Positions 53,252 through 55,180 of a stretch of DNA of 64,000 nucleotides are shown piece by piece. The notes below the pieces were generated by a model. That model made no database searches. It saw only the letters and a list, made by a program, of their open reading frames with translations, and was not told the origin of the DNA. This stretch comes from a virus. Its lineage: Duplodnaviria; Heunggongvirae; Uroviricota; Caudoviricetes. Each line of letters begins with the position of its first letter. Within the stretch, counting starts at the first letter, position 1. A program made the position numbers and the translations under genes. The stretch is taken from positions 1 to 64,000 of IMG/VR virus record IMGVR_UViG_3300045988_137643. One strand, given 5' to 3'.

Positions 53252-53611
53252 TTTTTATGTATAAGATGACTTTGTTTTCGTTGAGACGCGACTGTTTGAA
53301 CTTAAATACAAGTGCAAACGAAGAAGTCTATCTGGCAGTAGCCTAATAAGCCAAACACCAGCGAGGTCAGTTTCCAGCCTCGTTACCGAAATGGGACACA
53401 CTGAGCGAGTGTGATTACAGAACGCAGGAGGGAACATTCATGTTCCCTCCGATGAAGTAACAGAATGGGCGGTTGGTATATTTTCAACTCCATATGACTC
53501 CCGGATTCTTAGCCACTGACCGTCCATCCTGTTACGTCATTTTGTTCAATTATGTCGTTTATACTGGGTTAAAAAGCGGCGACGTAGCCCGGCTGGTATG
53601 GTTAGCCAGCA

Positions 53612-53733
53612 CACAACGTTGAGGCCATTACATTTTTATCAATTCTAAGGTTCTATCCACAGAAAAACCGGCGAACGTTGATATGTAACATGTTGGGCAA
53701 ACATTCAATCGGAGTAGTGGCCTCAACGTTGTG
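53612..53733 (+). other. long inverted-repeat hairpin element H1 (20-bp stem, ~82-nt loop)
   Basis: CACAACGTTGAGGCCATTAC ... GTAGTGGCCTCAACGTTGTG, one wobble position. Confidence 0.6.
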
Positions 53734-53999
53734 AAGACAGGATAGTTGTGTAGGTTTAACCACTGTTGCCATTGGTGCCTGTTTTCACAACAAATGATTC
53801 CATACATCACATTGTATAAATTACAAAGTAGGTGCTGTCCTCAGAAACATCATCTACTTAAAGAGTTTGCCTTCTACTATTGAGCGAAGTCGAAAGCGTC
53901 TGGCACTAACGAAAAGTGCAAGTAGCGGTGCGTTTCCTGGCAGAAACTAAACCGTCGCGATTGGCACTGTTGAGTAATAAATACTGGCAGTGCCGAATT

Positions 54000-54074
54000 G
54001 ATGGTGTAGCTCAGCGGTAGAGCAGTTGGCTGTTAACCAACTGGTCGGTGGTTCGAATCCACCCACCATCGCCA
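54000..54074 (+). tRNA. tRNA-Asn (anticodon GTT)
   Basis: manual cloverleaf: acceptor GATGGTG/CACCATC, D-stem GCTC/GAGC, anticodon loop CTGTTAA, T-arm GGTGG-TTCGAAT-CCACC, encoded CCA. Confidence 0.85.
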
Positions 54075-54079
54075 ATTTA

Positions 54080-54166
54080 GGGGAGTTAGTCCGTAGGGGT
54101 AGCGGGGTAGACTGTAAATCTACTGTCATTGCGACTCGGGTGGTTCGACTCCATCACTCCCCACCA
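54080..54166 (+). tRNA. tRNA-Tyr (anticodon GTA), long variable arm
   Basis: acceptor GGGGAGT/ACTCCCC, anticodon loop CTGTAAA, T-loop TTCGACT, encoded CCA. Confidence 0.8.
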
Positions 54167-54170
54167 AATT

Positions 54171-54246
54171 GCCGGTTTAGCTCAGTTGGTAGAGCAGTCG
54201 CTTTGTAAGCGAATGGCCAGCGGTTCAAGTCCGTTAACCGGCACCA
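54171..54246 (+). tRNA. tRNA-Thr (anticodon TGT)
   Basis: acceptor GCCGGTT/AACCGGC, D-arm GCTC-AGTTGGTA-GAGC, anticodon loop TTTGTAA, T-arm AGCGG-TTCAAGT-CCGTT, encoded CCA. Confidence 0.8.
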
Positions 54247-54254
54247 ACATAATA

Positions 54255-54334
54255 TTGAGAACATTGGCGTAACGGGGTCATATCCCAATCTATGAATAAA
54301 TGTCGCGTTGCAGCGTGACAACCAGTGTTCTCAA
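54255..54334 (+). other. inverted-repeat hairpin element H2
   Basis: TTGAGAACATTGG ... CCAGTGTTCTCAA; arm sequence related to H1/H3 arms (CTCAAC-TTGTG). Confidence 0.55.
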
Positions 54335-54336
54335 CA

Positions 54337-54436
54337 TTGTGGTGAATGCACAGGCTGATGTGCCGCAACTACAGTAGTGCGCGCTTTGCGGGGCTTGCTA
54401 CAACCCTGTGTCGGAGTTCAGCACCGACCATCACAA
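54337..54436 (+). other. structured element H4 bounded by TTGTGGTG ... CATCACAA
   Basis: 5' and 3' ends homologous to element at 54765-54910. Confidence 0.5.
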
Positions 54437-54764
54437 TTTGGCTCTCTTGCAACAGCATAACGCTGAAATATGTCCAACCTGGTGCGGCCTGTTCACCCGC
54501 CGTTAGCTCCACGAAACGGAGCGCACAACAGATAAGAGAACTTCCCATATGGGGCTTGGCTTAAATGCATCGAGTTCTCTTATCGCTGTGTCACAGACAA
54601 ATTTCCGACAGCCCTGTTTATCATCGGACGCAACCTAAAAGGTCGAGGCAAAGCCAGGTAATAGCGGAGGGAGTGACACAGCACACAACAGGTAAGAGCA
54701 TTTGTAGAGTTCGACTCTCTACCGTGGGCTTTTTCCCGCGATGCGAGCCATAAATGCTCTTTCC

Positions 54765-54910
54765 GTTGTGGTGGATTCGCAGACTGATGCGATAGCTTTC
54801 TTGGATGTTAGGGAAATGCGGCCGCAAATCTTCCCTTTCGCGAGCGGTGATCGTCCGTAGTCCTAATTGGCTGCACCGTATGCCGGAGATTCAGTACCGG
54901 CCACCACAAC
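54765..54910 (+). other. structured element H5 bounded by GTTGTGGTGG ... CCACCACAAC, directly upstream of tRNA-Ser
   Basis: perfect 10-bp terminal inverted repeat; internal 5' and 3' segments align with H4. Confidence 0.55.
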
Positions 54911-54914
54911 GGCC

Positions 54915-55001
54915 GGAGAGTAGGGAGCATGGTGCTCAAGCGGTCTTGAAAACCGTCCCATTGTGCAAACGATGATGGTTCGATTCCATTACTCTCCGCC
55001 A
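54915..55001 (+). tRNA. tRNA-Ser-like (anticodon TGA), atypical short D-loop and long variable arm
   Basis: acceptor GGAGAGT/ACTCTCC, anticodon stem-loop GCGGT-CTTGAAA-ACCGT, T-arm GATGG-TTCGATT-CCATT, encoded CCA; D-arm non-canonical. Confidence 0.6.
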
Positions 55002-55003
55002 GA

Positions 55004-55081
55004 CACAGCGTTGAGCGGTTTGGCCTTTTAATCACCCAGATTAAGACTCCGCTAACATAAACCAGACCGCTCAACGCTGTG
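55004..55081 (+). other. long inverted-repeat hairpin H3 (20-bp stem) directly downstream of tRNA-Ser
   Basis: CACAGCGTTGAGCGGTTTGG ... CCAGACCGCTCAACGCTGTG. Confidence 0.6.
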
Positions 55082-55155
55082 ATAGACAATTACGGCAGAC
55101 GTTCTTAACCATAGCTTGCTAACATCCTAGCAACACTTTTTACAGCGCAAAATTC

Positions 55156-55178
55156 AAAGGGGCTTCGGCCCCTTTTTT
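55156..55178. terminator. bidirectional terminator between tRNA cluster and HEPN-like gene
   Basis: AAGGGGC-TTCG-GCCCCTT with T6 on + strand and A-run upstream. Confidence 0.75.
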
Positions 55179-55180
55179 GG

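Follow-up and report, generated by a model that had tools for sequence, protein, structure and literature searches.

Four tRNA genes alternate with widespread, apparently undescribed phage RNA modules in a candidate non-coding RNA operon

The window analysed here is a stretch of 64,000 nucleotides (nt) from a virus of the class Caudoviricetes (IMG/VR record IMGVR_UViG_3300045988_137643, positions 1 to 64,000). Between positions 53255 and 55180 it carries four transfer RNA (tRNA) genes and a series of long hairpin elements. The best nucleotide matches of this region are CMS-2020a and Cyrano, both Escherichia phages, and 478 nt of it are found at 99.8% identity in an E. coli plasmid; by nucleotide similarity, the region is that of an SSU5-type phage-plasmid of E. 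coli. Very probably, positions 53262-55177 form one plus-strand non-coding RNA operon, in which the four tRNAs alternate with members of widespread phage RNA families. We refer to these families as modules A, B and C. They are apparently undescribed, and on comparative sequence grounds their elements fit conserved, structured and strand-specific RNAs.

The original prediction had placed four tRNAs in 1.9 kb free of open reading frames (ORFs), and both statements hold. ARAGORN finds exactly four tRNAs, all on the plus strand: tRNA-Asn (GTT, 54000-54074), tRNA-Tyr (GTA, 54080-54166), tRNA-Thr (TGT, 54171-54246) and tRNA-Ser (TGA, 54915-55001), the last with a long variable arm and the anticodon loop CUUGAAA. 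The Asn, Tyr and Thr genes reach the Rfam gathering score with 75.5, 41.9 and 69 bits for the tRNA model, and the best Rfam match of tRNA-Ser is the related clan model tRNA-Sec, at 46.8 bits against a cut-off of 47. The ORFs overlapping 53255-55180 are short (none above 93 amino acids, aa) and lie scattered on both strands. The hairpin elements, labelled E1 to E7, gave no tRNA-clan match at E ≤ 10 and no ARAGORN call beyond the four genes. Infernal searches with Rfam 15 (4227 models, 53200-55250, E ≤ 10) returned just the tRNAs, a terminator hairpin and chance-level matches, in line with the earlier remark that the elements resemble no recognised RNA family. On 18 diverse module B loci Rfam detected only tRNAs and one neighbouring Proteo-phage-1 motif; long inserts can hide matches from the filters in such searches. 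Keyword and sequence-string searches of the literature found no description of the module families, and fragments of them may be among the 10,006 unnamed viral candidate RNAs of a 2023 catalogue (PMC10690425).

At least seven hairpins had been claimed for the region, and an inverted-repeat search recovered every one of their stems in place. It also revealed two hairpins that had been overlooked, together with a structured RNA at the 5' end of the unit and a terminator at its 3' end. All elements lie on the plus strand. The first hairpin, E1 (53612-53733), is a clamp of module A type, CACAACGUUGAG ... CUCAACGUUGUG, whose 20-bp stem (53612-53631 / 53714-53733, 20 nt, 95% complementary) encloses an apical domain of 82 nt. 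Changes in this stem compensate among SSU5 relatives (GGCCAUUAC/GUAGUGGCC, GGUCACUG/CAGUGGCC, GACCACUGG/CCAGUGGUC). We notice that phage GArcari-2022b (locus L250) has cleanly lost E1, exactly between two copies of the palindromic 8-mer CAACGTTG in its arms, which suggests that short-homology recombination removes clamp hairpins and perhaps also exchanges them. The GUUGUG strand of E1 is common to the next hairpin (53728-53791, one of the two overlooked), which is closed by GUUGUGAAGACAGG / CCUGUUUUCACAAC (inverted repeat I6, 14 nt, 93% complementary), shows the arrangement of the later A-B junctions and is kept, with changes, in SSU5 and pJN2-26. Directly 5' of tRNA-Asn lies E0 (53958-53999), which is possibly just a local leader structure because it is not conserved in the SSU5 relatives.

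Between tRNA-Thr and tRNA-Ser, the modules follow one another in a compact block. E2 (54245-54344; stem 54245-54267 / 54322-54344) is a variant of module A, CAACAU-AAUAUUGAGAACAUUGG ... CCAGUGUUCUCAACAUUGUG. It is 92% identical to sequence 3' of trnT in the ban operon of phage P1, and its apical motif GUAACGGGGUCAUAUCCCAAUC recurs in the variable inserts (cargos) of P1 and of other module A copies. E3 (54337-54436) is the first copy of module B, a four-way junction with a variable arm of 48 nt. It combines a closing helix UUGUGGUG/CAUCACAA, a D-like hairpin GCACA-GGCUGA-UGUGC and a T-like hairpin GUCGG-AGUUCAGCA-CCGAC, and it differs from the two 25-nt scaffold halves by two mismatches on the 5' side and four on the 3' side. 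The leader hairpins of module C (54437-54522) end in GGUGC(GG)CCUGUUCAC(CC)GCCGU, followed by GCUCC-ACGAAAC-GGAGC (54506-54522). E4 (54524-54590; stem 54531-54542 / 54573-54584, 12 nt, 100% complementary) is a module A copy, CACAAC-A-GA-U-AAGAGAACUU ... GAGUUCUCUU-A-UC-GCUGUG. In Klebsiella phage 5 LV-2017, E. coli 55989 and other prophages, its cargo CCCAUAUGGGGCUUGGCUUAAAUGCAUC forms part of a stem that covaries.

The B slot after E4 is occupied by the other overlooked hairpin, E4b (54585-54682), in which GCUGUGUCAC / GUGACACAGC (inverted repeat I17, 10 nt, 100% complementary) enclose an interior of 78 nt. E5 (54684-54770; stem 54691-54703 / 54752-54764) is again module A, CACAAC-A-GG-U-AAGAGCAUUU ... 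AAAUGCUCUU-U-CC-GUUGUG. The cargo of E5 includes the T-loop-like hairpin that had been noticed here, GUAGAG-UUCGACU-CUCUAC at 54704-54722, and in its homologues, which include those of Enterobacter phage CobraSix and of many viral contigs, an A:U pair of the T-like stem is replaced by G:C. A Y RNA or YrlA-like identity of E5 was considered and dropped, as Rfam gave no such match. E6 (54763-54912; stem 54763-54774 / 54901-54912, 12 nt, 100% complementary) is the second module B copy, with a structured arm of 88 nt, the closing helix CCGUUGUGGUGG/CCACCACAACGG, the D-like hairpin UCGCA-GACUGA-UGCGA and the T-like hairpin GCCGG-AGAUUCAGUA-CCGGC. The proposed homology of 54337-54436 with 54765-54910, that is, of E3 with E6, is borne out by the inverted-repeat search and by scaffold-half matching. 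Behind tRNA-Ser lies E7 (55004-55081; stem 55004-55023 / 55062-55081, 20 nt, 95% complementary), a second clamp hairpin of module A type, CACAGCGUUGAGCGGUUUGG ... CCAGACCGCUCAACGCUGUG. The same element also stands 3' of tRNA-Ser in related viral contigs (L043).

Folding of these elements was compared with dinucleotide shuffles. Six hairpins gave z-scores of -5.5 (E1), -4.7 (E0), -5.6 (E2), -4.3, -6.8 (E5) and -10.4 (E7). Weaker values were obtained for 54335-54440 (-1.1), 54583-54686, which contains E4b (-2.3), and 54763-54912, which is E6 (-2.4). The 671-nt block from tRNA-Thr to tRNA-Ser (54244-54914) as a whole reached -4.5. Thus, most of the stems beat the shuffles, and modules A and B also covary among their homologues, as described below.

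The consensus of module B reads GUGGUG-AAU-GCGCA-GGCUGA-UGCGC {hypervariable} AA-GCCGG-AGAUCAGCA-CCGGC-CACCAC. In the resulting fold, a closing helix of 7-8 bp stacks on the 5-bp T-like hairpin to give 12-13 bp, as in the acceptor/T arm of a tRNA, a 5-bp D-like hairpin follows the closing helix, and the variable arm takes the position of the anticodon arm. At the elbow, the D-like and T-like loops kiss through five Watson-Crick pairs, GCUGA:UCAGC. We aligned 33 enteric scaffolds, including E3, with the pseudoknot included (alignment A1). Positions of the model are 97.4% paired and 12 of the 22 pairs are compensated, a combination reached by none of 500 shuffles. The kissing helix itself is 98.8% paired, and three of its five pairs covary, with the variants GUCGA:UCGAC in locus L005 and ACUGA:UCAGU in E6 of the window and in L024.

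For the breadth of module B, an exact 20-mer of the D-like hairpin was searched in one genome per species (596 Gb), where about one chance match is expected. At least 120 loci were found. Their hosts include many Enterobacterales, Pseudomonas, Xanthomonas, Stenotrophomonas, Dyella, Burkholderia and its relatives, Comamonas, Thauera, Halomonas and some Alphaproteobacteria; a few matches in metagenome-assembled genomes (MAGs) of other phyla are treated with caution, and about 12 matches in Xanthomonadales-type genomes were excluded as coding-sequence coincidences. In the 77 copies that were parsed, the 3' half is present beyond the variable insert, and the closing helix is perfect in 68 of them, with a sequence that differs almost every time. 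For 50 of the parsed copies, one from each of 50 species of many families, module B is 98% paired with 149 compensated cells, again reached by 0 of 500 shuffles. Its closing helix displays all four Watson-Crick types at most positions; since the search required it, the D-like hairpin cannot vary in this set. The scaffold is thus near-invariant from Enterobacterales to Pseudomonas, Burkholderia and Xanthomonas while the closing helix covaries freely, which argues against the earlier suggestion of degenerate tRNAs.

Module A is a clamp hairpin with the consensus nCAYAAC-A-GG-U-AAGAGCAUUG {30-150 nt, hypervariable} CAGUGCUCUU-U-CC-GUUGUG. From its base upwards it consists of CAYAAC, a bulged A, GG and a U.U mismatch, followed by about ten covarying pairs. 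E2, E4 and E5 are the copies in the window, and E1 and E7 are A-like clamps. Among the 49 distinct arm pairs of alignment A2, which contains E4, 97.7% of positions are paired, and compensatory changes occur at 11 of 18 pairs (60 cells). None of 500 shuffles reaches this pairing, and no slid register comes close. The helix contains 93 G.U cells, and two positions have U.G or G.U in 26 of the 49 arm pairs. On the complement these pairs would be A.C mismatches; therefore, the selected fold is that of the plus-strand transcript. The apices are of many types, several of them with a T-arm-like GGUUCGAnUCC hairpin. A covariance model of module A (R1) is limited to copies whose apical insert is shorter than about 30 nt. 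It detects E4, one of its own seeds, with 23.4 bits (E 1e-4), and it missed E5 and the lambda and P1 copies, so anchored regular expressions and trimmed alignments were used instead.

Loci with module C were collected from viral contigs with the 16-mer GCTCCACGAAACGGAG of the hairpin GCTCC-ACGAAAC-GGAGC, which is present in at least 119 contigs. The C/A/B layout was read from these loci side by side, among the matches listed. The upstream stem of module C covaries as well (CAG/CTG, CCAG/CTGG, CGG/CCG, CTGG/CCAG). A likeness of module C to the 3' end of ssrA (AGCUCCAC.A) was dropped, as the match of 8-9 nt is within chance and the comparison was made post hoc.

The elements had first been regarded as a local family. 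They are real, but their scope is not local: the families spread over hundreds of phages. The 68-nt scaffold of module B is found in 263 isolated phage records, with hosts in Klebsiella (76), Pseudomonas (61), Escherichia (54), Ralstonia, Burkholderia, Erwinia, Aeromonas and others. The C+A scaffold is found in 184 records, nearly all of Enterobacterales phages. In a sensitive search, single elements align at 75-84% identity with intergenic regions of unrelated phages. In lambdoid phages and prophages, these matches lie between the Q antiterminator with tR' and the holin gene, often right behind a tRNA. HK620 is among the phages that carry the families. Module B lies downstream of cI in an Stx2a phage of O157:H7, between a Q-like region and the holin gene in Pseudomonas phage D3, and in a region of tiny ORFs and tRNAs in the virulent Ackermannviridae phage Magnus. 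The annotation under the phage matches is absent or consists of hypothetical-protein ORFs, or of Plp and Upl in P1. We found no modules in phage P22. Of the head of P22-like late operons, the phage L paper notes just the tRNAs for Asn, Thr and Leu (PMC8022706).

Phage lambda itself (NC_001416, locus L256) carries a perfect module A, GCACAACAGGTAAGAGCATTG...CAGTGCTCTTTCCGTTGTG, at about 44,787-44,861, a few bases beyond tR'. It is followed by an element in the B slot that is closed by GUUGUGCUG/CAGCACAAC (GTTGTGCTG/CAGCACAAC). Both elements, at about 44,787-44,950, lie in the unannotated leader 5' of gene S. In P1 (locus L002), the order A-B-C-A-B follows 3' of trnT in the ban operon, and positions 54231-54538 of the window are 92% identical to the DNA just 3' of that tRNA gene. 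Antisense to these modules A, B and C, two genes are annotated in P1 (NC_005856, 69,472-70,041), namely plp (125 aa), which overlaps trnT, and upl (63 aa). In the 92%-identical copy of the window, the corresponding minus-strand ORFs are broken into 55, 44 and 59 aa, so plp and upl are probably not genes, and the P1 modules appear to have been mistaken for two proteins. We reject the protein-coding reading of the modules on this ground, the frame not being kept, and because RNA covariation is seen on the plus strand.

Among the matches listed, a tRNA on the same strand lies no more than 600 nt upstream of module C at 63 of 114 loci (Arg-TCT 33, Thr-TGT 23, Asn-GTT 4), and none of the 114 has an opposite-strand tRNA within 900 nt. 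For module B in diverse genomes, a tRNA is nearby in 6 of 101 copies. In non-enteric prophages, by reading of the ORFs, the element often precedes early genes of the recT/yqaJ type or follows a Q-like gene and a terminator. We notice a lone module B in the Jedunavirus Klebsiella phage BUCT_49532 (L003, 1854-2710), between an HNH endonuclease gene and a terminator. The HNH gene and module B are inserted as a pair, in opposite orientation, between baseplate and tail-fibre genes. The pair looks like a mobile endonuclease-plus-RNA cassette and recalls T4 segB beside rnaC and rnaD.

The variable arms of module B range from about 20 to 270 nt, and we count 103 distinct arms in 82 sequence clusters. 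One cargo family of about 145 nt occurs in a Pelagibacterium MAG (L142), in a Kluyvera isolate (L186) and at four further genome loci. It sits within different closing helices, keeps conserved single-stranded motifs and shows compensatory changes at 11 of 28 pairs. Similarly, the arm of E6 is common to Klebsiella phage BUCT_49532 and the genome locus L236, with 10 of 46 pairs compensated. By these patterns of sequence change, the cargo is predicted to be a functional RNA rather than a spacer.

Based on these results, we speculate how the array might work. It would be transcribed together with the tRNAs and cut by the host enzymes of tRNA maturation and RNA processing. Ribonuclease (RNase) P, the obvious candidate for the 5' end of module B because of the tRNA-like geometry, would cleave at the 5' side of this module, and RNase E, RNase III or exonucleases would make the other cuts. 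The scaffolds would ensure that the RNAs fold correctly, are processed and withstand decay; the work itself would fall to the variable arm or apex, a cargo domain for binding or titrating a factor of the host or of a competitor. Such RNAs would be a natural counterpart of the engineered 'tRNA scaffold' and of the species 1/2 RNAs of phage T4. Because no gene lies between the last module and the terminator in the window, we favour a product that acts in trans here. Since modules head other heavily transcribed phage operons, abundant expression in lytic growth is expected. Identity and mechanism taken jointly, this is our best explanation, with about an even chance of being right; the mechanism alone, processed scaffold RNAs that display a trans-acting variable cargo, we put forward tentatively, at somewhat below even chances.

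Several observations weigh against this proposal. The T-like loop AGAUCAGCA, of 9 nt, is not a canonical T loop, and most module B copies lack an encoded CCA, so recognition by RNase P is an assumption. The link to tRNAs is not general, given the 6 of 101 module B copies outside enteric phages with a tRNA nearby. That the two kissing hairpins are so extremely conserved suggests that they have a specific partner, which the proposal does not name, and the diversity of the cargos gives no hint of a target. Moreover, at each A-B junction (54760-54770, 53728-53733, 54336-54344) a single GUUGUG (or AUUGUG) serves as both the 3' arm of A and the 5' closing strand of the next element. The A and B helices therefore exclude each other when complete; this competition could be a fold switch or set a processing order.

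A further step would be that the modules form an RNA cassette system of temperate and some virulent phages of Proteobacteria, in which two scaffolds display dozens of unrelated structured cargos that are swapped at hot spots for accessory and anti-defence genes. In this picture each cargo would act as an RNA effector, for instance an aptamer-like inhibitor, a decoy or a sponge directed against host defence or RNA metabolism. We regard this extension as possible but rather doubtful. If true, it would add an unrecognised layer to the arms race between phages and hosts, even in lambda, P1 and the Stx phages.

The main rival, unlikely in our estimate yet better placed than the other alternatives, holds that the modules act in cis as punctuation or stabilisers. 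They would mark cleavage sites and insulate their neighbours, much like the tRNA punctuation of mitochondrial transcripts, leaving protective 5' and 3' structures on tRNAs and mRNAs, and the arm would be a tolerated passenger. Such a role suits modules that stand at the heads of operons and at the borders of genes and that invariably point in the direction of transcription. It also suits the pattern of conservation, which is confined to helix geometry and the elbow, all that a shape-reading enzyme needs, with a free closing helix and inserts of about 20-270 nt. Meanwhile, tRNAs and modules are interchangeable by slot; in L043, for instance, tRNA-Ser stands directly behind a module C hairpin and CACAAC. 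However, the inserts are not minimised and keep their own covarying structure across distant hosts, the near-invariant loops exceed the need of a pure shape signal, and the window has no downstream mRNA to protect or release.

In another scenario, an attractive special case that we consider improbable, the modules are tRNA-shaped decoys against tRNA-targeting immunity that complement the replacement tRNAs of the phage. Module B has a tRNA-like fold, modules reside together with tRNA-Tyr, Asn, Thr and Ser, they occupy hot spots of accessory genes (after pR'-tR', after cI, in tRNA clusters), and their hypervariability is what an arms race predicts. Phage tRNAs are documented as counter-defences: the tRNA-Tyr of T5 is reported to act against a retron (bioRxiv 10.1101/2023.03.15.532788), and Septu is reported to cleave tRNA-Tyr (PMC13096335). 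Against a decoy role, the arm at the anticodon position is unlike an anticodon stem-loop, most copies have no CCA end and most non-enteric copies lie away from tRNAs.

It is very unlikely that the modules form a leader directed at RNA polymerase or terminators, like the put RNAs of HK022 or rrn boxA, which would alter elongation or termination in the operon. Their location right after tR' or cI, at the start of long operons, would suit this role, and the commonest 3' arm of module A (for example at 54755-54764), UGCUCUUU, equals the first 8 nt of rrn boxA. This arm is base-paired and covaries freely (among its variants are UGUCAUUA, UUUCCUUU and GGUUUUUG), so it is not conserved as a sequence; we reject a boxA or antitermination site as the conserved feature of module A, and the match is probably a coincidence. 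Besides, Q already antiterminates the lambdoid late operons, and in the window a strong terminator closes the tRNA operon that contains the modules.

Weakest of all, and largely refuted already by strand-asymmetric covariation, is a DNA-level or neutral origin as palindromic repeats, recombination handles, decaying tRNA genes or the repeats resembling miniature inverted-repeat transposable elements (MITEs) once proposed here: the long near-perfect inverted repeats of E1 and E7, the clean deletion of E1 between CAACGTTG copies in GArcari-2022b, scaffold flanks that could act as homology arms for shuffling cargos and a canonical GGUUCGAnUCC T arm in some B-slot copies, suggestive of tRNA ancestry, are outweighed by G.U-rich helices valid on the plus strand only, strict co-orientation with transcription, a covarying loop-loop tertiary pairing and conservation across bacterial classes with a freely covarying closing helix. 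On the same evidence, namely the 93 G.U cells, the 63 same-strand against 0 opposite-strand tRNAs among the 114 loci and the loop-loop covariation, we reject DNA repeats of the MITE or repetitive extragenic palindromic (REP) type. Integron attC sites are rejected as well, as GTTGTGG/CACAAC misfits GTTRRRY/RYYYAAC and there is no IntI context; no integrase lies near the lambdoid copies, and that of the window is a generic phage integrase (Pfam PF00589), 1.5 kb away. The AsxR/AgvB anti-small RNAs (sRNAs) and Pas sRNAs of the same 'moron' region are short, terminator-bearing Hfq sRNAs with other sequences, and were excluded.

The closest known analogues of the proposed scaffold RNAs are the T4 species 1/2 RNAs (rnaC, rnaD). 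These small stable RNAs lie inside the tRNA cluster of T4, on the tRNA strand, as the modules lie in a tRNA operon. In rnaC, an acceptor-like stem is combined with a T arm directly before the 3' strand and two long hairpins at the positions of the D and anticodon arms; module B has a stack of helix and hairpin with an insert. The T4 cluster holds a homing endonuclease gene, segB, and BUCT_49532 has an HNH gene beside module B. In contrast, inspection shows no sequence similarity between rnaC and the modules. The T loop of rnaC is canonical (GGUUCGAAUCC), whereas the T-like loop of module B is non-canonical and forms five Watson-Crick pairs with the D-like loop, GGUUCGAnUCC being confined to some B-slot copies. 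For the T4 RNAs, no scaffold family with many alternative cargos is known, and modules A and B are found far beyond tRNA clusters. RNAC and RNAD are described as confirmed late RNAs 'of yet unknown functions' (PMC9697503).

Compared with a canonical tRNA, module B has the four-way junction, the 7-bp helix on a 5-bp hairpin, the elbow of D-like and T-like loops and the same operon slots, but it has no anticodon arm, no conserved CCA and non-canonical loops, and neither ARAGORN nor the Rfam tRNA model reports the modules, the latter even at E ≤ 10. Other tRNA-like substrates of RNase P are known from phages, such as the C4 RNA of P1/P7 and the M3 RNA of phi80. In the engineered 'tRNA scaffold', the anticodon stem of a tRNA is exchanged for an RNA of interest, which thereby gains processing and stability in E. 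coli. Module B has this same architecture, with acceptor/T stack and elbow kept and a structured RNA at the position of the anticodon arm; the laboratory construct, however, is made from a real tRNA, and comparable processing and stability of module B are only inferred. ROOL and GOLLD are large, ornate, phage-associated RNAs, often beside tRNA genes. Like them, the modules are encoded by phages and prophages, often beside tRNAs, highly structured and non-coding, with lytic expression expected. Unlike them, they occur in Proteobacteria, measure about 70-300 nt and consist of a scaffold and a hypervariable insert, not one large conserved fold, and the ROOL and GOLLD models of Rfam match neither the window nor the 18 diverse loci.

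Proteo-phage-1 RNA (RF03044) is likewise a bioinformatically defined RNA of proteobacterial prophages, with another sequence and fold (two hairpins, 82 nt), and it is absent from the window. In a Pseudomonas uvaldensis prophage (L151, 1674-1753) we found a copy of it with 74.7 bits, just behind a terminator-like hairpin; a module B copy follows about 130 nt downstream, so that two phage RNA motifs are neighbours there.

If the modules are functional RNAs, well-studied phages hold unannotated conserved non-coding genes, among them lambda, P1 (in the ban operon), HK620, D3 and the Stx2-converting phages of O157:H7. The tRNA-shaped scaffold, near-unchanged across bacterial orders, points to a conserved cellular partner that reads it, and diversifying selection is suggested by the more than 80 alternative arms that serve as cargo. 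The modules would also offer an entry into the function of the T4 species 1/2-type RNAs, a question dating from the 1970s, and into the reason for the great length of phage tRNA clusters and late-operon leaders. In addition, they would provide, for the expression of structured RNAs in bacteria, a scaffold of natural origin that evolution has already tested.

Apart from the modules, the unit begins with a structured RNA of about 350 nt (53262-53610, plus strand), which is near-invariant among SSU5-type phage-plasmids, here Salmonella phage SSU5 and the Klebsiella phages pJN2-26 and GArcari-2022b. RNAalifold predicts 85 pairs in it, including a 26-bp helix and hairpins with compensatory changes. 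Its layout recalls transfer-messenger RNA (tmRNA), since a tag-like frame follows an A-rich stretch, and hairpins and long helices come next. The frame, GCA AAC GAA GAA GTC TAT CTG GCA GTA GCC TAA TAA, would encode ANEEVYLAVA before two stops, and reads ANEDTYLAVA and a stop in SSU5 and ANDNQYLAVA and a stop in pJN2-26; the known tmRNA tag is ANDENYALAA. Unlike a tmRNA, however, the RNA has no detectable tRNA-like domain. ARAGORN was negative in both standard and permuted searches, Rfam tmRNA_permuted scored 15.1 bits (E 0.69) against a cut-off of 47, GArcari-2022b has an in-frame TAG at codon 5, and RNAalifold pairs the 'tag' segment with 53590-53609. We therefore do not call it a tmRNA.

At the 5' border of the unit, an AT-rich hairpin with a T-run (53222-53261, plus strand; inverted repeat I15, 53228-53238 / 53245-53255) is a possible weak terminator of the upstream ligase operon. 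A promoter-like stretch at this border, AAGTATTTACTTACTTAT ... TATAAGAT, is invariant in SSU5, pJN2-26 and GArcari-2022b; a consensus scan gave no site in it at its threshold, and a promoter is therefore only presumed here. The 3' border is the strong intrinsic terminator AAAGGGGCUUCGGCCCCUUUUUUU (55154-55177, plus strand; called by the terminator scan at 55156-55175), which also gives a local match to a terminator hairpin within an Rfam model.

The 5' neighbours on the plus strand are an ATP-dependent DNA ligase gene and small ORFs. On the 3' side lie an ORF of 298 aa, a glutaredoxin-like ORF and the tyrosine integrase. The 298-aa ORF (55181-56077, minus strand) lies directly beyond the terminator and converges on the RNA unit; it has no match in Pfam or PADLOC, and different genes are annotated at its position in Cyrano. 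In Cyrano, tRNA-Thr is followed by tRNA-Ser without an intervening block, and the block between them in the window is therefore a cassette-like insertion. We notice that this phage, otherwise 97% identical, lacks tRNA-Tyr as well as the whole module block 54244-54914, which indicates rapid turnover of the tRNA and RNA content of the locus among close relatives. Finally, 10 kb from the region, a palindromic hairpin CACAACA-(28 nt)-GUUGUG at 43835-43875 has the same closing 6-mers as module A and scores 13 bits with model R1 (E 0.14) on both strands.

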